DNA from: Clostridia bacterium
GTDB lineage: Bacteria; Bacillota; Clostridia; CAKSNL01; HGM11501
Reading direction: 5' to 3'
Assembly: GCA_045545475.1 (NCBI GenBank)
Contig: JAZQAZ010000010.1
Coordinates: 107,590 to 171,589, forward strand
DNA: 64,000 nucleotides
The translations under genes and the position numbers were made by a program. Positions within the stretch are counted from its first letter, which is position 1. The number at the start of each line of letters is the position of its first letter. This document shows positions 2,556-18,837 of this stretch, piece by piece. The notes under the pieces are model-generated. The model searched no databases. It was given only the letters and a program-made list of their open reading frames with translations, and was not told the DNA's origin.

Positions 2556-4377
2556 CGTTATATGTTCTCAAAATACGACCGCGTCTTTGAACAAATTCTC
2601 TGTAATCATCATTGCTGGAAAGTATAAGGGCACTCTTGATTGAAGGAATGTTGATACCTTCGTCAAGACATCGAATAGCCGCCAAAGCCGATATCTCGCC
2701 TTTATTAAAAGCATCGACTAATTGCATTCTGTCATCCATATTTTCCTGAGCTGTAAATTGACTGGATTTATATCCATGTGCTGAAAGAACTCGTTTTACA
2801 GATTGGATGTGTCGTAATTCTTCACCCGTGTTGTTATCAAACAATCGACCATCACCGCAGTAGACTACAAAATGATCCTTTTCTTGAATCTGAGATACTA
2901 TATAATCTATTTTCTCTTGTTTTTCGTCCGCCATAGAAATAACACGCAGTCTATTTCTCAAAGACTTCACCAGCTGGTCTGGGTTTATACATACACTGTT
3001 TTTAAAACATGACAGTATTTTATGAGTGTGATATTGAAATTTGTTTTCATCCTCTTCGCTTGCGTGTACATATATAGGGTGATAGTAATATGGAACAAGG
3101 AATTTGCGTTCAAGAGCTTCTTCAATTGGTAAGCTAAATACTTGTCCACCGAAGAATTCCATTAACTCCTTTCCTCGTTGAGCCGATGTACCGCTGAATG
3201 GAGTGGCACTTAATCCAAGCATATATTTGAATTGTGTATGCATATCTTCAGAACGGTCAGTAAAGCGATGTGCTTCGTCTACAATTAAGAGTTTATCTTC
3301 AGTTGATTTTCCCAAAGTGTTTGTAAACCTTGGCATTTTGAAAGATGCGATTGTTGAAATAATAATTGTTTGTGCTTTTGAATCATATTTCTTTCTGATA
3401 ATTTCTTGGGACATTTGTTGTTCCCACTTTGGATTTTCAGAAGAAACCAATATAATCTTGGCATCTTCGAATGCTTTTTCGACATCTTCTGCCCATTGTT
3501 TTACTAAATGCTTATATGGTGCACATATAACAATCATAGCAGGGTGCGTTTTAAGAAGTTCTTTTGCAGAATAAATTGCGGTCCATGTTTTACCTGTACC
3601 GGTAGCCATAACATAAAAACCATGATAATCGTTTTCTACCCACGCTGCAATTGCTTGTTTCTGATAATCTCTTAATTCTATAGGAGATTTCGCAGAAACA
3701 GATGTAGCACGTGTCTCTATCATCTGTAAAATGTTAGATTGGGCACTTTCTTTGTAATCATAAACTTTTACAAATTTATTAGTGCCATTCCAAAGAGATT
3801 CAAATTCTTCTTGCTCATCGGCAATATTAGCACATTCTTCAGGAATCCAGTTTTTTACAACACGTATTTTTTCATAGTTGTTTTGATACCCACTTAAAGT
3901 AGAGTTTGCAGAACCGTAGAAAACCACAACATTCCCATCAAAATCCTCAAGAATACCAAGCTTATCATGATATATTCCGAGAGTATCAGTTACAGCAATC
4001 TTGATATCAAGAATTCCACGTGCAATTAAGGTAGCAAGTAATTGTAATTTGGCATCATCAAATACTTCTATTTCTTTCATAAAATCACGAGTAAAGGATG
4101 ACTTTATAACCTTCTCTCTTGCTTCATATCCGGTAGTGATTGCCTGAACATCTTCTTCGGTAAGATTCGGACTTGCAATTAATTGTATCTTGCCATTGTT
4201 TCTCGCCAATGCAACTATTCCATCCACAATGGGCTGTAAAACCGACGAGGAGAAAAAACCTACACTTCGTTTATAATTTTTGGTACATTTTAAAACAGGA
4301 GTCAAAAAAGCTTTGGCTATATTTTCTTGACCCACACTTACATAACTTCGTTTAATATCTAATTCCCGGTAATTCAT
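2512..4377 (-). CDS. Superfamily 2 (ResIII-like) helicase with N-terminal PLD-like domain, restriction-associated type; C-terminus looks truncated
   Basis: HDKLG..GSAN PLD-like motif, MATGTGKT Walker A, DEAH, LSATP, LDEGINIP, QRRGRILR. Confidence 0.85.
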   Translation of the reverse strand: MNYRELDIKRSYVSVGQENIAKAFLTPVLKCTKNYKRSVGFFSSSVLQPIVDGIVALARNNGKIQLIASPNLTEEDVQAITTGYEAREKVIKSSFTRDFMKEIEVFDDAKLQLLATLIARGILDIKIAVTDTLGIYHDKLGILEDFDGNVVVFYGSANSTLSGYQNNYEKIRVVKNWIPEECANIADEQEEFESLWNGTNKFVKVYDYKESAQSNILQMIETRATSVSAKSPIELRDYQKQAIAAWVENDYHGFYVMATGTGKTWTAIYSAKELLKTHPAMIVICAPYKHLVKQWAEDVEKAFEDAKIILVSSENPKWEQQMSQEIIRKKYDSKAQTIIISTIASFKMPRFTNTLGKSTEDKLLIVDEAHRFTDRSEDMHTQFKYMLGLSATPFSGTSAQRGKELMEFFGGQVFSLPIEEALERKFLVPYYYHPIYVHASEEDENKFQYHTHKILSCFKNSVCINPDQLVKSLRNRLRVISMADEKQEKIDYIVSQIQEKDHFVVYCGDGRLFDNNTGEELRHIQSVKRVLSAHGYKSSQFTAQENMDDRMQLVDAFNKGEISALAAIRCLDEGINIPSIKSALILSSNDDYREFVQRRGRILRTYNDVLLRGYPFARKKF

Positions 4378-7094
4378 ATCAAATCCTCATCTAAGTCTAA
4401 TTCAATATAATCCGATATCAAATCGTCTATATTGTCCAAATCATCTGCCTGTGTAATTGTCGCAGTCGTATCTACAGAAACACCTTGATATCTCTGTGTA
4501 TCCAACTTTCCACTTGGAGCAATTATAGGAACAGACAACTTAAACTGATTCGATGTTGTTCCAACCACTAAAGAATTGCTCCATTTGTTAACCACGCTGT
4601 AAATTAGCCATTCCGTCCATGGTACATTGATTTTGGGAAGATTATATATGCACTCAAGTGATGTTACAAGCACCGTATCAGTAACTTCGCTTTCCAAAAT
4701 AGATATTACATCATTGGCAACATCATCATTTATTCCGATATGCTCAATAGTAGCAAATGTATTTCTATTCACAAGAAGATGGGTGTCGTTGAAATTATTA
4801 AGCAATTCAAGTATAGAATAAATCTCGTAATGGTTTTCTTTTGCAAAAGAGGTGATTTCGGATATTGCTATTTCTTCGCTATTTATTATTAAATCTTGTA
4901 ACTGTTCTTCGGGATCTCCAATTTCGACACCAATATTTGCAACAAAAGGTCTCTTGAATTGATATTGTTCCCTAAACAGATACTCGAGCACCGAGAATAA
5001 ACTGGTAGGAAAATGTATAAAAAGCTTATGTAAAAGATCTGAATCGTCGTGTGCTATATAGTCATACAATTCTTTGTAATGTTTTACTTTGTCATCCGAA
5101 ACAAACTTTTTTAAAACTCTTGCAAAATACATTTTGTCTGAATCCGAAAGGTTCAACATACTACCGTGAATATATTTACCAAAGAGATTAATGATGTTTG
5201 TGTCATCTGTAGCAAAAGATATAACTATTTCCGTTACACCGGGAAAAGCTCTCTTGATATCTTCTTTCGTAATGGGATAAGAGAACTGTTTAATATATTG
5301 AATAATCTCGACATACACAGAGGTAACAGATTCGTCTTTTGATATATAATCTCGCCTGAATACGAACTCAGAACCATATAACTCACGCAATATACCCTGT
5401 AAATAGTATTTATTGTCAATGCCGAATTTGAGTAATTCATCTTCGAAAACACTAAACAAGGTATTGGTCATAAAAATTACAGAAGAACTCTCAACAATAT
5501 ATCGGTGTATTTTTTCTGCCAGTTCTTTCGAGATATATGATTCTTTCTTGGGACGATATTTACCCCTGCCGCAAAGAATACCTATATCAGAAAGACGCGC
5601 AGATATTGCTCGGCTCTTTTCGGGAAGATTCTTGCATCCATACTCTTCAACTGCAACATATCTGAATACTTGGAGCTCTTTCTCATTATAAATGTCAATT
5701 CCATTTGGATAATATTTTTCTAGTATTTCAGTATAAATAGCGGTCAGAGAAAGGTGTGAACGATGATATGTAGAGCCGTCCTTTTGGAATTCTTCACATA
5801 AAGCTTTTTCTAATAATTCTCTCGGAATATTTTGTTCTTCAACAGCTTCTGATATAATAGCTTCATATTTCTTTTCATCAAAAGAATCCGGCAAAGATTC
5901 AACAATTCTTCCTATGACAGCAGAGATGGATTCATCACCCATAACAAAAACATCGAGTTGAGAATCATAATAGTAGGAGGGACTGTCAGAAGTACGAAGC
6001 AAAAAGACCATTTCAGAATATTTATCATCAAAATATTCACTTAGTTCTGATGCAGAAAGAACAGTATCTCCGTTACGTTCCGCAGAAATCTTGGATAGAA
6101 TATGAGCCTTACCCTGCCAAAAATTAAAGATTCTTTTAGCTTTTGCCTCAATTTGACGAACTCTTTCACGCGTGACACCCATTTTGTCGCCGACGCTACC
6201 CAACGTTTCTCCGGAGGCTCGTCCTAAAATAACAGATTTAATACTTTTGGATTTACCATAAAGCGTTTGAAACAAATCCTCAATTTCTTCTTTTATGTCA
6301 AATGTGCACCATTTAAAAAAATTCAATAATAAGGCAAAATCTGTTACAGACTCTGAAACCTTTTCAGAAACAAAACTATTTATAGTAGCAGTTGGATTGT
6401 TCTCTAAGCCATAAATATCATAAAGAATTTTGCGTTGTTCATCATCGTTTGTAAAAGCGTTGATGTATCCGGAAACACTGTTTTTCCTTCGCCATACTGG
6501 TATAACCGCAAGATACTCATTAATTTTATTAATCCTGCATTCACGTTCATGTTGATCTTTTATAAGTGGCTTGAGAAGTTCCAACAACGGAAGAATATCG
6601 TTCGGAGAGTTATAGCAGGCGCGTGCCAAATCAGCACCCAATACTTCAACTGCACTTTTGTATTTTTCAACAATAATCAATTCTTCTGTTGAAATATTCA
6701 ATTCTTCGCAAAAAGAAAAATCCTGATTTAGTATGTTTTCAATATTGCTGGATATGATTTCGGGAATATAATTTGCAACTTTTTGTTTTTCATTCGTAGG
6801 GTTTAATTCGGTGGTTTTATTGGAAAGTTCTGACAAGTATTTACAAGTTTCATCATAACACTTTTTACCTGCACCACGAAGTTTGATAAACTCATCAACT
6901 TTCATTCTGTAAAGATCTGCTATGGTATTTACGCCACTATGCATCAATAGATTTGTTACACGAACGGAAATAGGAAGAGATTGTACACTCACATCCTCAA
7001 CGCTCGACAGATCAACTGGGTAAAGATCCCAGAAAGTTGTATCTGATATTAAATTGTCGGCAGTCTTTTTTGAGGTTTTGAGATTTTCTATCAT
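4374..7094 (-). CDS. Large protein with RNA polymerase alpha-CTD-like and sigma-70 region 4 HTH domains
   Basis: LPISVRVTNLL..GVNTIADL...LRGAGKK (alpha-CTD-like) and TLGSVGDKMGVTRERVRQIEAKA (sigma4); 4-nt overlap with the helicase gene. Confidence 0.8.
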   Translation of the reverse strand: MIENLKTSKKTADNLISDTTFWDLYPVDLSSVEDVSVQSLPISVRVTNLLMHSGVNTIADLYRMKVDEFIKLRGAGKKCYDETCKYLSELSNKTTELNPTNEKQKVANYIPEIISSNIENILNQDFSFCEELNISTEELIIVEKYKSAVEVLGADLARACYNSPNDILPLLELLKPLIKDQHERECRINKINEYLAVIPVWRRKNSVSGYINAFTNDDEQRKILYDIYGLENNPTATINSFVSEKVSESVTDFALLLNFFKWCTFDIKEEIEDLFQTLYGKSKSIKSVILGRASGETLGSVGDKMGVTRERVRQIEAKAKRIFNFWQGKAHILSKISAERNGDTVLSASELSEYFDDKYSEMVFLLRTSDSPSYYYDSQLDVFVMGDESISAVIGRIVESLPDSFDEKKYEAIISEAVEEQNIPRELLEKALCEEFQKDGSTYHRSHLSLTAIYTEILEKYYPNGIDIYNEKELQVFRYVAVEEYGCKNLPEKSRAISARLSDIGILCGRGKYRPKKESYISKELAEKIHRYIVESSSVIFMTNTLFSVFEDELLKFGIDNKYYLQGILRELYGSEFVFRRDYISKDESVTSVYVEIIQYIKQFSYPITKEDIKRAFPGVTEIVISFATDDTNIINLFGKYIHGSMLNLSDSDKMYFARVLKKFVSDDKVKHYKELYDYIAHDDSDLLHKLFIHFPTSLFSVLEYLFREQYQFKRPFVANIGVEIGDPEEQLQDLIINSEEIAISEITSFAKENHYEIYSILELLNNFNDTHLLVNRNTFATIEHIGINDDVANDVISILESEVTDTVLVTSLECIYNLPKINVPWTEWLIYSVVNKWSNSLVVGTTSNQFKLSVPIIAPSGKLDTQRYQGVSVDTTATITQADDLDNIDDLISDYIELDLDEDLI

Positions 7095-14045: not shown

Positions 14046-14501
14046 ATGAATAAATCAAAAATTCGGTGTACTTTTGCCGGGCACAGTGAGATTCATAACT
14101 CAAATCTTGTTGAAGAAATAAAGGCTACTGCAAAAGAATTGATTATCGAAAATGGTGTTAATGAGTTCTGGGTAGGTCATTACGGTGACTTTGATCATTA
14201 TGCCGCAAAAGCAGTAAGGGAACTCAAGCGGGAGTATGACATAGAGCTTGTACTTGTAATTCCATATCTTACAAAGGAAATCGAAGAATACAAAGAAGAC
14301 TATTATAAAAATTTTGATGCGATAATTATGGCAGACATACCCCAAACAACACCTACAAAATTAAGAATTATAAAAGCAAATCAGTATATGGTAAATGAGT
14401 CTGACTACTTGATTTGCTATGTGAAAAATACTTGGGGAGGAGCTGCGAAGACATTAGAATATGCAAGTCGTAAGAAAAAAACAATTTACAACTTAGGATA
14501 A
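14046..14501 (+). CDS. SLOG-family (YspA/DUF1273-like) protein
   Basis: CTFAGH, G.FD, LVIPY, ANQYMVNESDYLICYV...GGAAKTLEYA motifs. Confidence 0.8.
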   Translation: MNKSKIRCTFAGHSEIHNSNLVEEIKATAKELIIENGVNEFWVGHYGDFDHYAAKAVRELKREYDIELVLVIPYLTKEIEEYKEDYYKNFDAIIMADIPQTTPTKLRIIKANQYMVNESDYLICYVKNTWGGAAKTLEYASRKKKTIYNLG

Positions 14502-14594
14502 ATGACATGTATAGCAAATTAAAAAAATACAAAAGCACCCACTTTTTTAACTCCTGCCATTGAAAGTAGTAAAAGCATATGTTAAAATGTCAAT

Positions 14595-14695
14595 GTAAAA
14601 ATGGTAAGCAGTTAAAATGGTAAGCAGTTAAGCAGGTATTGGTATGTGCATCCTTGGGATAGGTGTGTGCATTTATACTTGCTTGTTATTTTTTT
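14595..14695 (+). ncRNA. Putative sRNA, cassette 1 (class A)
   Basis: TTGAAA-17-TAAAAT promoter; tandem motif; hairpin AAGCAGGTAT/ATACTTGCTT followed by T-tract. Confidence 0.6.
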
Positions 14696-14839
14696 GAAGG
14701 AAAACTAAATAGTTTTCGGGGAACTGATTGCATATTAACTTGCAGAATCACATATTTTCTTAAAATATTTTTCTGAAAAATACCCTTTATTTTTTCTCCT
14801 GGTCTTGTTTTGAGAAAAATAATGTGGTAAACTATGTGT

Positions 14840-14944
14840 GTAAAAATGGTAAGCAGTTAAAACGGTAAGCAGTTAAGCAGGTATTGGCGTATGCCTTTTC
14901 TTAGGATAGGTGTGTGCATTTATACTTGCTTTTTCTCATTTTTT
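14840..14944 (+). ncRNA. Putative sRNA, cassette 2 (class A, paralog of cassette 1)
   Basis: TTGTTT-17-TAAACT promoter; same tandem motif and closing stem; inner stem GCGTATGCCT/AGGTGTGTGC is rich in G-U pairs. Confidence 0.6.
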
Positions 14945-15040
14945 ACGGAAAACAAACTTTTTAGCAGAATAAAAAAATTTATACCTTCAATTTTAGCTCC
15001 ACCGCTACCAATTAGTATTTACATATGCTAAAATAGCACT

Positions 15041-15215
15041 GTAAAAATGGTAAGCAGTTAAAACGGTAAGCAGTTTAGATGGTTTTTAAGGGTAACAAAT
15101 TTACTCACAAAACCGTCGGGGTTTTTGTCAAACCTTGTAAGAAGACGAGGGTACACATAAGCCTTTCCGACGGGAGAAGTATGCCCAAACGCCTTTTTTA
15201 AGGTGTTCGGCACAA
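15041..15215 (+). ncRNA. Putative structured RNA, cassette 3 (class B)
   Basis: Extended -10 TGCTAAAAT; tandem motif; long hairpin CCGTCGG...CCGACGG; then GCCCAAACGCC/GGTGTTCGGC hairpin. Confidence 0.55.
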
Positions 15216-15332
15216 CAAATTATTTCAAGTCAAAACAAACGATTTTTGTATTAAGAAAAAACAATTTACAAATTTATATTTAATTTAGCGCCACCTCTAC
15301 TCAAGAGGGTTTACATATGTTAAAATAACAGT

Positions 15333-15664
15333 GTAAAGATGGTAAGCAGTTAAAATTGTAAGCAGTTGCGGTAACTTTAGTTACTGATAGTTTTTTCAGG
15401 AGATTAACCATAAGTTCTTGTGAACCTTTACAAGTCGTAAAGAGTACACCAAAACTTTTATTACAGGAGATATTGTCTGAATACTCATTGAGTGTTCGGC
15501 AAGTAAACGGTATGACTGAAGAGCGATTATGCTCATTTGCAGTCTGTGGAGTGGTAAAGCTACGGGATAACTATGTCCTGAAGCTCTATCTAAAAATTAA
15601 ATATTACGGAAACAAAAAGAATGTAGATTTAGCCTTAAATGGCTTATTTCTGCATTCTTTTTTT
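15333..15664 (+). ncRNA. Putative structured RNA, cassette 4 (class B, longer, ends at an intrinsic terminator)
   Basis: Extended -10 TGTTAAAAT; tandem motif; hairpins homologous to cassette 3; terminator AAAAAGAATGTAGA...TCTGCATTCTTTTTTT at 15614-15664. Confidence 0.55.
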
Positions 15665-15684
15665 ATCTAAATATCGAATGGAAA

Positions 15685-16172
15685 CCAAAACTTTTGAAGA
15701 GTTCTATCGGCACATCCAGCCCTGCTCGGCAGGAATGTGTACGGACAAAATTTTGTGGAACAACGAAAATGAAATGTGCAAGCTTTTAACGGTTTTCCTT
15801 GCACAGCAAAGTCGGGCGAAAAAGAGCCTCACTTTGTTACTTAAAATCCAGGATGTGAGCAGACATCCGGACACAGTAGCGGCTGTGAAAACACATTCAT
15901 ATGTCACCGCTTATGGCATATTTCAGCATCGGCATTTTATGCACCTGAGTTTAGCAGGTTGATGCTACCGCCGGATTTTTAAGTCCAAATAACAAAATAG
16001 CGGTAATATTACTAACCTGGCAGTTAGCTTCATACTAAAGGGAGACAGAGATTAAAAAAGCACACGAAAGTGCCGTAAATATGCTGTTTTCCATTAAGTC
16101 AAACAAGGAAATACAGAGGTAACAGATACAAAAAGCTCAGTGCCATAGCTATGCCCTTGCGAAAGAAAGGGA
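15685..16172 (+). ncRNA. Highly structured non-coding region (RNA or ssDNA origin) upstream of the tyrosine recombinase
   Basis: Consecutive helices and a multibranch domain closed by ACTTAAAATCC (15839-49) / GGATTTTTAAGT (15973-84). Confidence 0.45.
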
Positions 16173-16177
16173 TTAAA

Positions 16178-17044
16178 ATGAAAACTGCAATATACAAGAA
16201 TTTAGAAGTTCAGTACAACAAGTTGTTCCGTCACCTGAAAGTTGGCAGTTTCAAAACGAGAGAGCGTTACGGCAAGGCGTTCAAACGCTTTATGGTATTT
16301 CTGGCAAAAGAGTACCGATTGCAAAAGCTTTGCAACATTTCCGAAAAGCATATACTTGCATACGTTTCGTATATGCAAAAGAAAGGTCTGTCAGCTTCGA
16401 CCATCAAGACCGAGCTTGCCGCCATTCGTTTCTTCCACGACAATATGCCGTACACGAGAAGCACATTGCCGAGCAATGAGGACTTAGACCTCAAAAAGCG
16501 TACCTTTGGTGGTGCGGACAGAACCTGGACTTCTCCGGAATTTAACCATATGCTCATTGCCGCAATTGATAACAAGGATTATCAGGCGATTCTGTGCCTT
16601 GCGAGATACGCTGGTCTTCGCTTGGAGGAATGCTTCCGCATCGACACCAATGATGCAAAAAACGCCCTTGATACAGGCAATCTGCTTGTCAAGGGCAAGG
16701 GTGGACTTTGGAGATATGTACCTATCAATGAGTCTATCAGAATTACATTCCGTGATATGTTAAAGATAACTCCCATTGGAGAAAAACTGTTTGTGCGACC
16801 TTACGACAAGACGCATCTTGCAATGAAAAGACTGCAATGCTTTATTGCGTATCACAGAAAAAGATTTACTGAAAACACAATTACTTTCCACGGACTTCGA
16901 CACACCTTTGCACATGAGCAGTACAACAAGTTCATTGAACAAGGTTACTCTGACTTTATGGCTCGTAAAAAGGTATCGGAGCTACTCGGGCATCACCGTG
17001 ATGATGTAACGAGAATTTATTTGTCGGGCGGTGATGATGTATGA
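16178..17044 (+). CDS. Tyrosine recombinase with N-terminal SAM-like domain
   Basis: Catalytic residues present: GLRLEE, VKGKGG, FHGLRH, LGHHR, RIYL; AAAGG RBS before ATG 16178. Confidence 0.9.
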   Translation: MKTAIYKNLEVQYNKLFRHLKVGSFKTRERYGKAFKRFMVFLAKEYRLQKLCNISEKHILAYVSYMQKKGLSASTIKTELAAIRFFHDNMPYTRSTLPSNEDLDLKKRTFGGADRTWTSPEFNHMLIAAIDNKDYQAILCLARYAGLRLEECFRIDTNDAKNALDTGNLLVKGKGGLWRYVPINESIRITFRDMLKITPIGEKLFVRPYDKTHLAMKRLQCFIAYHRKRFTENTITFHGLRHTFAHEQYNKFIEQGYSDFMARKKVSELLGHHRDDVTRIYLSGGDDV

Positions 17045-17254: not shown

Positions 17255-17306
17255 TTTACAAAAGCACCTGCTTTTGGTATAATAATTAAATAATAGCAGG
17301 TGCTTT
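17255..17306 (+). promoter_or_regulatory. Integrase promoter inside a 12-bp inverted repeat
   Basis: TTTACA-17-TATAAT; AAAGCACCTGCT (17261-72) and AGCAGGTGCTTT (17295-306) flank the -10 box. Confidence 0.65.
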
Positions 17307-17347: not shown

Positions 17348-18607
17348 ATGAAAAGAAAAGATATAAATGTCTATATAAGAGACAAAAAAGGTTATTACTA
17401 TGCTGTTATAGTTTATAAAAATGCACAAGGCAAGCGAAAAGAAAAGTGGTTTCCGACTAAATTGCAGATTCGCGGTAACAAGAAAAAAGCAGAAGCGATT
17501 GCAGATCAGATCCTTGAAGAATTTGAAATTCCTGCCGAGGATTTGTGTTTGAAAGAGAAGAGTACAAAGCTTGGCAAGAATTGTATTGCAAATGCTACGC
17601 TTGACGATTTGACACAATCTCAGGTTGCAAATTTGTTGTTCTCGGATTACATCATAAAGTATTTGCCGCTGACGAGAAAAAGGCGAAGAAAGATTGAAGA
17701 CACTACATATTCAGGCTATGAGGCAAACGTAAAAAGCGTTGTCGCTCCTTATTTTGCAAAGAAAAAGATTAAGCTTAAGGATCTGACGGCAAAAGACATT
17801 CAGGACTTTTACGACAAGCAACTTGAACGTGTAAAACCAAACTCGGTTATTCGATACCACGCAATCATAAGACTTTCTCTGTGCCACGCAAGAAAGATGC
17901 GATACATCAAGGAAAATCCCATTGAAGAGGTGGAAAAGCCCGAGAAGAATCAGTTTATCGGCAAATTCTATACGGCTGAAGAACTTACCAAACTTATAGA
18001 GTTAGCCAAAGGCACAAAGCTTGAAATTCCCGTTATTATGGGCGGTTTTTACGGACTTCGCAGAAGTGAGGTTGTGGGATTGAGATGGTCGGCAATAGAC
18101 TTTGAGAACAACATATTTTACATCAATCACACGGTAACAACTCCGCAAATTGACGGTGTAACCAAAATTGTTGCAAAGGACAGAGCAAAGACTAAATCAA
18201 GTTTGAGAGCCTTACCACTTGGCAAAGATGTTAAAGAAATACTTCTTTGCAAAAAGCAACAGCAGGAAGAGTACCGCAAGAAGTTCAAAAGCTCTTATAA
18301 CAAGAAATGGCTTGATTATGTGATGGTTGATGAATTAGGTGATTTAATTACACCCGATTACATTACCGGAGCATTCAAAAGCTTTTTGGCAAAACATGAG
18401 CTTCGTGAGATACGCTTCCACGATCTTCGTCACACCTGTGCTTCGTTGCTTCTTAACAAAGGCAAGCACGAGGGAATAACGCTTAAAGACATTCAGGTAT
18501 GGCTTGGACACAGCGACTTTTCGACTACTGCGAATACATATTCACATCTTGATGCAACGTCAAAAGGATTTTCGCTAAGTGCGTTAGAGAAGGCTATAAC
18601 ATTCTAA
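17348..18607 (+). CDS. Site-specific tyrosine integrase (ICEBs1/Tn916-like)
   Basis: N-terminal arm-binding region, GLRRSEVVGLRW, IRFHDLRHTCAS, WLGHSDFSTTANTYSH. Confidence 0.93.
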   Translation: MKRKDINVYIRDKKGYYYAVIVYKNAQGKRKEKWFPTKLQIRGNKKKAEAIADQILEEFEIPAEDLCLKEKSTKLGKNCIANATLDDLTQSQVANLLFSDYIIKYLPLTRKRRRKIEDTTYSGYEANVKSVVAPYFAKKKIKLKDLTAKDIQDFYDKQLERVKPNSVIRYHAIIRLSLCHARKMRYIKENPIEEVEKPEKNQFIGKFYTAEELTKLIELAKGTKLEIPVIMGGFYGLRRSEVVGLRWSAIDFENNIFYINHTVTTPQIDGVTKIVAKDRAKTKSSLRALPLGKDVKEILLCKKQQQEEYRKKFKSSYNKKWLDYVMVDELGDLITPDYITGAFKSFLAKHELREIRFHDLRHTCASLLLNKGKHEGITLKDIQVWLGHSDFSTTANTYSHLDATSKGFSLSALEKAITF

Positions 18608-18708: not shown

Positions 18709-18746
18709 AAAATCGACAGGGCTCTCTGTCGAACCCTGTCGATTTT
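18709..18746. terminator. Hairpin immediately downstream of tRNA-Ser
   Basis: AAAATCGACAGGG-12 nt-CCCTGTCGATTTT. Confidence 0.7.
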
Positions 18747-18837
18747 GGCGGAGAAGGTGGGATTCGAACCCACGTGCCGGAATTACCGACAAACTGATTT
18801 CGAGTCAGCCCCGTTATGACCGCTTCGATACTTCTCC
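18746..18837 (-). tRNA. tRNA-Ser(CGA)
   Basis: GGAGAAG acceptor stem, anticodon loop CTCGAAA, long variable arm, GGGTTCGAATCCC T-arm, encoded CCA. Confidence 0.95.

Follow-up and report, generated by a model that had tools for sequence, protein, structure and literature searches.

Promoter-proximal antitermination cassettes are well known from phages, e.g. PR'-qut-tR' of lambda with its 6S RNA, N/nut, and put of HK022. In Gram-positive conjugative elements, control in the leader has been described for conAn1 and conAn2, which act by processive antitermination (PMC8191782), for canT with terminator T1 in Tn916 (PMC11658703) and for pLS20, whose leader carries the zipper-type attenuator cATT (PMC13401043). 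Antiterminator RNAs of the conAn2/canT type act in cis and let RNA polymerase run through several unrelated terminators. Their published members are only 30-40% alike (PMC8191782). Here we describe an array of four cassettes in a 64,000-nt stretch of a Clostridia bacterium (contig JAZQAZ010000010.1; hereafter the window), each consisting of a predicted promoter, a 5' tandem repeat and a structured body. The module family to which they belong is one of integrative-conjugative elements (ICEs) and smaller integrative islands of gut Clostridia, and the module is probably a regulatory RNA switch of mobile DNA that has not been described before.

As read directly from the sequence, the four cassettes lie on the same strand (+) between a SLOG-family gene and a tyrosine recombinase gene, termed c0 (Table 1). 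The predicted start of each is a G (14595, 14840, 15041 and 15333), from which all four read GTAAA(A/G)ATGGTAAGCAGTTAAAA(T/C)(G/T)GTAAGCAGTT, i.e. two 16-nt units forming a 35-nt tandem. Each start is preceded by a -10 hexamer that ends 7 nt before the G and is itself preceded by TGn; in cassette 1 a TTGAAA -35 box at a 17-nt spacer gives 10 of 12 consensus matches in addition to the TG extension. The 10-mer GTAAGCAGTT occurs exactly eight times in the window, always inside the four cassettes; with up to one mismatch it was found at 14 sites, compared with 3.73 ± 1.73 in 100 shuffled sequences, none of which reached 14. In the whole genome (2.74 Mb, 95% complete) the tandem is present four times, all at this array, and a reversed control gave no match. 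When 119 nt are compared with cassette 1, the flanks of cassettes 2-4 show identities of 76, 68 and 61%, whereas no more than 1-3 positions of the 35-mer are changed. The starts, the spacing of the extended -10 box, the 16-nt period and the diverged flanks are as claimed in an earlier note made from the letters alone. Alternative versions of the unit core, GGUAAGCAG and GGUUAAAGU, were also noticed.

One genome per species, covering 185,579 species, was then scanned for exact matches to a 26-nt tandem pattern. This gave 54 further copies on 47 stretches of 34 assemblies; together with the four window cassettes, 58 copies were compared. The carriers are metagenome-assembled Clostridia (Oscillospiraceae, Acutalibacteraceae, 'Eubacteriales'), except for one bin labelled Gastranaerophilales. 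Among the 53 copies with at least 40 nt of upstream sequence, 52 have a TAnnnT hexamer ending 7 nt before the G and 46 the TG extension, and this conserved geometry supports the view of the earlier note that each cassette has its own (predicted) promoter. The bodies fall into few types: A in 28 copies (including cassettes 1 and 2), C in 18 (including cassettes 3 and 4), B in 6, and two minor types, in accordance with a constant 5' handle joined to variable bodies. Cassette subtypes recur in the same order elsewhere (A1-A2-C5 in locus L018, A1-C5 in L027), and in L017, L020 (copy at 149), L035 (copy at 3613) and L011 the tandem joins new combinations of promoter type and body, e.g. an A2-type promoter with a C3 or C4 body. 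The invariant tandem looks like a crossover point, and array members look as if gained or lost via recombination between tandems.

Neither the tandem nor cassette-1 DNA was found in any of 13 other genomes of the same family or order, and 72,556 plasmid records gave no blastn match to 14540-15680. In IMG/VR, 40 stretches match a single 16-nt unit, mostly in unrelated coding sequence, and none of the 40 has the tandem or the promoter. A literature search for the 11-mer gave no relevant context among the matches listed, which look like primers or unrelated coincidences; supplementary files were outside the search. With Rfam 15, only the tRNA was found in the whole window at the gathering score; between 14400 and 16200, at E values up to 10, nothing credible fell on the cassettes, where four overlapping matches had E values of 0.19-6.6 and scores far below gathering. 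An ICE-type leader (L016:1-500) had no Rfam match either. The expectation that the cassettes belong to no Rfam family and that motif and structures are conserved in related elements is supported, by the covariance-model search on one side and by the 54 further copies and the covariation described below on the other.

Folding predicted a long hairpin followed by a U-tract for cassettes 1 and 2, more stable than in shuffled sequence on the + strand only (z-scores of -2.15 and -1.91, versus -0.66 and -0.87 on the - strand), and a multi-hairpin structure for cassettes 3 and 4 (z -3.83 and -4.86). In the alignment of type A hairpins 94% of the cells are paired and four pairs are changed on both sides; the covariation score was reached by none of 500 shuffles, and slid controls fell to 40-49% paired. 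Many of the type A pairs are G-U, which would be C-A mismatches on the opposite strand, so the pairing is specific to the + strand. Both the two body architectures and the G-U-rich, strand-specific stems had been pointed out in the earlier note. In cassette 2, GUAAAAAUGG at the 5' end is able to pair with CAUUUUUUAC 3' of the hairpin. More generally, the first 9 nt of type A copies pair with CAUUUUUAC just past the hairpin, perfectly in 17 of 27 unique copies and in one more via G-U; this complementarity is not present in cassette 1 of the window. ICE-type leaders are predicted to form a closed 5' domain, in which the tandem lies between the closing stem and the hairpin; past a 25-nt linker, a strong hairpin ending in U7 separates this domain from the ribosome-binding site (z -6.6). 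A candidate second promoter past hairpin 1 (TTGTCA-17-AATAAT) was rejected: L031 has lost the -35 box and kept the pairing to the 5' end, and the conservation of that stretch is therefore read as RNA pairing.

The gene context was recorded as the next same-strand feature within 1.3 kb of each of the 58 copies. The recombinase c0 comes next in 15, another cassette in 10, a gene for a JAB-domain protein followed by ThiF/E1 in nine, an SNF2-type helicase gene followed by a beta-clamp gene in five, a gene for a small sigma-like protein followed by the JAB gene in four, and an integrase gene in one; 11 copies run into a contig end and three have none of these features. In 18 of the 58, the module lies 200-370 nt 5' of a JAB, SNF2 or sigma-like gene that is the first of a multi-gene cluster on the same strand. 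According to Pfam and PHROGs, the JAB operons contain JAB, ThiF, a DUF6094 methyltransferase, an E2-like protein, Rad52/ERF, an SbcC-like protein and a primase, and the SNF2 operons the SNF2 helicase, the clamp, an ATPase and SSB. A 65-kb contig on which two modules are separated by 10.5 kb codes in addition for a TraG/VirD4 coupling protein, a DnaD-like initiator, SSB, ERF, a primase, DUF3848 and DUF6744, and is an ICE or a related conjugative element. The ICE leaders contain no promoter-like site 3' of their last terminator. Island-type loci have one to four modules, a 480-nt leader, c0 and then a tyrosine integrase or a large serine recombinase. In L005, a group II intron-type reverse transcriptase/maturase-like open reading frame (ORF; 598 aa, by eye; 4447-6243) splits the conjugative-element operon.

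The sigma-like protein, family c29, has about 150 aa with conserved cysteines, and five of seven members match sigma-70 region 2 (best E 2.7e-5). Its gene is the first past the module in L021:6570-7022, L012:2139-2594, L031:2345-2788, L168:4020-4487 and others, and it follows the module also in the variant loci L152, L153 and L168.

The tandem is less uniform in more distant relatives. Variants were collected from the sequence 5' of c0 homologues (76-80% identity) and by a degenerate pattern scan, most of whose other matches, in a ribosomal protein gene and elsewhere, are due to chance. The core is GGTAAGAAG with a period of 17 nt in L120 and L126, where the tandem stands behind an extra 5' hairpin and is shifted 17 nt downstream; L121 has GGTTCAGT and GGTTACAGT (period 14-15 nt), L125 GGTTCAGT and GGTCACAGT (15 nt) and L124 GGTTGTTGT and GGTTGTAGT (15 nt). 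In Lachnospiraceae bacterium MD329, an isolate, three units of core GGTTAAAGT with a period of 15 nt occur in the two modules heading the sigma-like-JAB-ThiF and SNF2 operons, and the Hominilimicola cores are GGTTGATAGT and GGTTTGAGT (15-16 nt). What stays invariant is UAAA(A)NGGU...AGU; the unit consensus is UAAA(A)YGGU-N3-6-AGU, present in two units and elsewhere in up to three. The description of the tandem as nearly invariant thus holds among close relatives and fails for distant ones, which change both core and period. The layout, i.e. the tandem after the start, a hairpin with GGAUAG and the same operons, is kept in the distant elements (MD329, Hominilimicola, c0 loci). In L124, L120 and L126 the tandem is displaced by 7-17 nt relative to the start; together with the variable period, this is easier to reconcile with recognition of single-stranded RNA than with a phased DNA operator. 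In MD329 as well as in G002, the two modules of the element have a common unit core, which fits an element-specific reader.

Three units instead of two were seen in L013 (copy at 4257), L030 (copy at 570), L119, L121, L124, L125 and L168/L169. The final, incomplete unit makes up the 5' foot of the next hairpin in several variants. Two coding readings of the repeat region were discarded by eye: the mini-ORF within the unit (AUG GUA AGC AGU UAA) is lost in variants, and the small ORFs 3' of the GGGAnAnnUAUG motif vary in frame and length among copies.

By analogy, the anatomy of strong promoter, recognition-like element in the first 35 nt, terminators and operon is that of a promoter-proximal termination switch. 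Leader RNAs act in this way in Gram-positive conjugative elements, and we therefore chose a cis-acting leader reading, which we put forward tentatively: the cassettes would be promoter-leader RNA modules that give short terminated RNAs by default and whose 5' tandem recruits a factor controlling read-through. A sigma-A-type extended -10 promoter would start a transcript comprising the two or three units and then the conserved hairpin with its terminator. By default RNA polymerase would stop at the terminators, giving RNAs of ~105, 105, 220 and 335 nt at this locus. The single-stranded 5' tandem of the nascent RNA could serve as a loading platform for a trans-acting factor specific to the element type, which would suppress termination and let transcription reach the operon behind. 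The targets would be the JAB-ThiF and SNF2-clamp-SSB operons in ICEs, and in the island of the window the structured leader and the tyrosine recombinase; the integrase is a less certain target because it has its own promoter. In this manner the recombination genes of the island may follow the regulatory state of a related conjugative element.

The comparison with conAn, canT and cATT supports this reading in several respects. Common to all is a long structured 5' leader past the main promoter of a conjugative-element operon, with intrinsic terminators in or after the leader and regulation by read-through, which for the present module is a prediction. The position typical of processive antiterminators, in the 5' leader or early part of a long conjugative-element operon, is taken by 18 of the 58 copies and in the island of the window applies only to recombinase genes. 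In cATT, a weak stem-loop is followed by a long imperfect hairpin and this by an intrinsic terminator; the upstream and terminator sequences are complementary, which allows the long stem to extend. The ICE-type leaders have the tandem region, a long imperfect hairpin, a downstream terminator and 9-nt complementary flanks, but here the complementary flank lies between hairpin and terminator and not in the terminator arm. Unlike those systems, for which the accessible parts of the reports describe no tandem 5' repeat, the module carries one; it heads replication or JAB-ThiF type operons and recombinase genes rather than a conjugation operon; and it occurs several times per element and also in arrays. 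Thus, the module in kind resembles the leader attenuators and antiterminators of conjugative elements, from which the tandem handle, the use at several operons and the arrays set it apart.

The phage cassettes share with it a constitutive promoter, a recognition element some tens of nucleotides at most into the transcript, a terminator that by default leaves a short RNA, and an operon further on. They differ in that the element here is a direct tandem and not boxA/boxB or a Q-binding element, and the annotated stretches revealed no gene like Q, N or NusG. A resemblance to boxA and ops was considered and set aside as weak, judged by eye against the consensus sequences. Mobilizable islands may carry activator-dependent promoters of a helper ICE or plasmid. 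The present island is comparable as a small island with the regulatory signal of a larger element before its recombination genes, a coupling suggested here by shared motifs only; the difference is that an activator box stands 5' of the promoter there, whereas here it is a transcribed tandem with RNA structure.

Several observations speak against a read-through switch of this kind. No factor reading the tandem was found among the two proteins considered for it: the sigma-like c29 was not found in three of five module-bearing ICE genomes, and recombinase c0 had no homologue in any of three ICE-type genomes tested. The two units are unlike each other in some variants. None of the long hairpins was flagged by a simple terminator scan, whose loop limit was 3-8 nt, and in the ICE-type leaders the U-run of hairpin 1 begins 8 nt past the stem, which makes this hairpin a poor terminator. 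JAB, SNF2 and sigma-like homologues were not detected in the bacterium's own genome (95% complete), so a cognate helper element is not seen there. Cassettes 1 and 2 are not explained by a pure leader model, since only further cassettes follow them, yet their order and structure are conserved in other genomes. Finally, among 24 public RNA runs listed, the best holds 0.34 of the sampled words, and four RNA-labelled runs consist of low-depth assembled contigs, most of which derive from related sequences with 85-95% identity; since transcript starts, ends and strand cannot be told from assembled contigs, these runs do not count as evidence here.

The conservation of cassettes 1 and 2 keeps alive a second explanation, which we consider rather unlikely overall: the cassettes would be free-standing small RNAs (sRNAs) whose 5' tandem is a protein- or RNA-binding handle, and cassettes 1 and 2 would act in trans, e.g. 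as decoys. In the decoy form, orphan type A copies would mimic the ICE leader and sponge its regulator, so that the island senses or interferes with a helper; the JAZSDT and CAZTNR assemblies indeed hold both ICE-type and island-type copies. Each of cassettes 1, 2 and 4 possesses both a near-consensus promoter and a hairpin with U-tract, 10 of the 58 copies lead only to another cassette, and the orphan subtypes that recur in order in L018 and L027 keep their stems via G-C to G-U changes. Moreover, the U-tract abuts hairpin 1 in the island copies, unlike in ICE leaders, where a separate terminator lies further 3', and the pairing of the ICE-type 5' end with the 9 nt past the hairpin would give an end-protected RNA. 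Such sRNAs do not account for the 18 copies located 200-370 nt 5' of an operon, past whose last terminator there is no promoter-like site, and a scan of two element regions revealed nothing complementary to the unit. Since the module leads conjugative-element operons and has a further terminator behind it, a regulatory leader is at least as likely as free-standing sRNA genes.

Control at the level of DNA appears improbable. The tandem could be a double-stranded operator for an element repressor that shuts off all these promoters, or contain -10-like elements in the non-template strand inducing sigma-dependent pausing close to the promoter, as at phage late promoters that depend on Q; both asymmetric operators built of direct repeats and pause sites near promoters are well documented (P1 C1, L5 gp71, lambda PR'). 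It begins at +2 of the predicted transcript, overlapping the position of RNA polymerase, and most variant units contain TAnnnT followed by GG (AAAAAT-GG, TAAAAT-GG; by eye). A Q-type pause site would have a -10-like element in the initially transcribed non-template strand together with a Q-like protein. AAAAAT-GG occupies +3 to +10 of almost every copy; in most of them the second unit reads TAAAAC, without the key T of a -10-like element, and no Q-like protein was recognised in the annotated stretches. In the two ICE-contig stretches inspected (45 kb and 50 kb) the unit is present in one orientation and only at module promoters. The period of 16 bp at this locus sets the repeats on opposite faces of the DNA, and the variation of the period (14-17 bp) and of the start offset (7-17 nt in the three loci named above) argues against an operator as well.

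An RNA-only processive antiterminator with insulator, in which the 5' domain itself modifies RNA polymerase as in put, EAR or canT, so that module-started transcripts pass terminators that block read-through from outside, is very doubtful: it would suit the strongly structured 5' domain directly 5' of terminators in conjugative-element leaders, and Tn916 works in this way with canT and T1 (PMC11658703), but upstream read-through transcripts would carry the 5' domain too, the invariant single-stranded tandem with element-specific cores resembles a recognition site and not a polymerase-binding fold, no similarity to known elements was found (no Rfam match), and the recombinase would escape regulation if it stood behind a row of four constitutive antiterminating promoters.

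Other known systems fit less well, in line with the earlier note, which had set the array apart from CRISPR and from type III toxin-antitoxin (TA) systems. Like ToxI of the latter, the module has a promoter, tandem direct repeats, a terminator and then a gene; its units, however, are of 14-17 nt in 2-3 copies versus ~34-45 nt, and the genes behind encode JAB, SNF2, sigma-like or recombinase proteins and not a ToxN-type endoribonuclease. A 16-nt period with a 5-nt spacer and one promoter per cassette differs from a CRISPR array or a solitary repeat mimicking one, with repeats of 28-37 nt and unique spacers, and no cas family was matched by the proteins scanned from 41 of the listed ORFs at 1-23049 and from the 6.3 kb to the left, a host CRISPR repeat not having been searched for. 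The proposed role as antitoxin RNA of the SLOG protein is not supported, because an SLOG homologue adjoins a cassette in only one of the 47 exact-match loci (L008) and in the variant locus L167. The latter homologue (L167:603-1109, - strand), 53% identical to that of the window and divergent to a variant cassette at ~1748 (+) on a Hominilimicola contig, is the sole SLOG neighbour seen outside near-identical DNA. A cofactor of the recombinase, also suggested, did not hold as a general role: 18 of the 58 copies head JAB-ThiF, SNF2 or sigma-like genes, and since c0 is missing from all three conjugative-type genomes tested the module is not simply a c0 cofactor. A guide RNA for recombination was rejected, as the tandem has no match near the att site and the same tandem occurs in islands with tyrosine and with serine integrases; nothing relevant was among the matches listed in a literature search on RNA-guided tyrosine recombinases.

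Table 1. Positions of the cassettes and neighbouring features in the window.
Feature	Position	Strand	Remarks
SLOG/YspA-family gene	14046-14501	+	5' of the array; island cargo, not a consistent partner
Cassette 1 promoter	14560-14588	+	TTGAAA, 17-nt spacer, TGnTAAAAT; hexamer TAAAAT at 14583-14588
Cassette 1, 5' tandem	14595-14629	+	two 16-nt units, core GGTAAGCAGTT
Cassette 1 body, type A	14629-14698	+	long imperfect hairpin, apical AUCC/GGAU stem, U-tract; predicted RNA ~105 nt
Cassette 2 extended -10	14825-14833	+	TGGTAAACT; hexamer TAAACT at 14828-14833
Cassette 2, type A	14840-14946	+	tandem 14840-14874, hairpin, U-tract
Cassette 3 extended -10	15026-15034	+	TGCTAAAAT; hexamer TAAAAT at 15029-15034
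Cassette 3, type C	15041-15262	+	tandem 15041-15075, multi-hairpin body without clear terminator; homologues in L017, L020, L038
Cassette 4 extended -10	15318-15326	+	TGTTAAAAT; hexamer TAAAAT at 15321-15326
Cassette 4, type C	15333-15672	+	tandem 15333-15367, multi-hairpin body, terminator hairpin 15609-15667 with U7 (inverted repeat)
Recombinase leader, structured, predicted non-coding	15673-16150	+	conserved; sub-threshold xerDC-like match 15898-16017
Tyrosine recombinase c0	16151-17044	+	likely start 16178; R, HxxR, H, Y motifs; follows a cassette in 15 of 58 copies
Island integrase, tyrosine type	17348-18607	+	own promoter 17255-17283
tRNA-Ser(cga)	18746-18837	-	3' end (18746-18776) is attR

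Between the array and c0 lies a stretch of ~480 nt which is highly conserved and has compensatory changes in several hairpins when aligned across loci; its sequence marks it as an apparently non-coding, structured leader of the recombinase gene. An ORF of 94-107 aa at 15639/15678-15962 has no Pfam match and, in its 94-aa form, is broken or frame-shifted in all 16 related loci examined; it was rejected as a gene for lack of conservation, in agreement with the claim that no credible gene lies between the SLOG gene and the recombinase. The leader matches xerDC RNA (RF03062) end to end over the model (1-126) with 42.3 bits (E 6.5e-5), below the gathering score of 72.5, and six related loci gave no xerDC match at gathering level. 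As with xerDC RNA, the structured leader is situated directly 5' of a XerC/D-like tyrosine recombinase gene in Clostridia; it differs in that the match is sub-threshold and does not reach the four cassettes. One conserved hairpin loop of the leader is UAGCGG, which we take to resemble the CS-6 loop of single-strand replication origins. The leader may have a DNA-level role, such as a single-strand origin (sso) or an origin of transfer (oriT).

A second motif, roughly CGGGAUAnnUAUGCCC, is repeated in type B and C bodies, e.g. at 15165-15180 and 15560-15577, and the related GGGAUAGG is apical in the type A hairpin. It is also present as GCCATAGCTATGCCC immediately 5' of the recombinase start (16130-16178), where CCCUU could pair with the AAGGG ribosome-binding site.

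The array is part of an island of ~25 kb (G000:C10:101245-126366; window -6344 to 18776). Its attL, at C10:101245-101275 and 6.3 kb before the window start, repeats the 3' end of tRNA-Ser(cga) over 31 nt with 90% identity, and the integrase adjoins the tRNA gene; the location in an integrative element, as stated in the earlier note, is thereby supported. In c0, the residues R, HxxR, H and Y align to a XerC-like structure, and the protein is probably an active tyrosine recombinase. The cargo of the island looks like genes for defence and toxins: a Macro domain, a PLD-SNF2 helicase, GmrSD and Mrr, two Fic proteins, a resolvase, the SLOG protein, an RNase III-like protein with dsRNA-binding motifs, a Gp49/HigB-like and an HTH_17 protein. 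A vWA protein and a transglutaminase are also encoded. The RNase III domain with double-stranded-RNA-binding motifs belongs to a 331-aa protein (L098:3477-4472, +) left of the window. Among the defence-type genes, a 906-aa protein (window 4374-7094, - strand) has segments like the C-terminal domain of the RNA polymerase alpha subunit and like sigma-70 region 4, an unusual pairing.

Combining the two roles discussed above, the island cassettes might be RNA mimics of the ICE leader domain, at once a sponge throttling the helper and a sensor switching on the recombinase, which we regard as a long shot. Their strong promoters would then turn out short RNAs bearing the 5' tandem with which early operons of the ICE recruit a specific antitermination factor, and the recombinase would be switched on once this factor appears. 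If true, this would mean an RNA-based parasite-helper circuit between island and ICE, a new class of tandem-handle RNAs and a new RNA-binding regulator. How genes are controlled in the conjugative and mobilizable elements of gut Clostridia has hardly been explored, and such elements carry defence and resistance cargo between species, as illustrated by the Mrr, GmrSD, Fic and Macro-domain genes of this island. The module can serve as a marker of regulated operons across the element family, as a handle for finding the regulator and as a case in which the borrowing of a larger element's control signal by an island can be tested, and its 5' tandem with element-specific cores is a candidate for a new RNA-protein recognition code.

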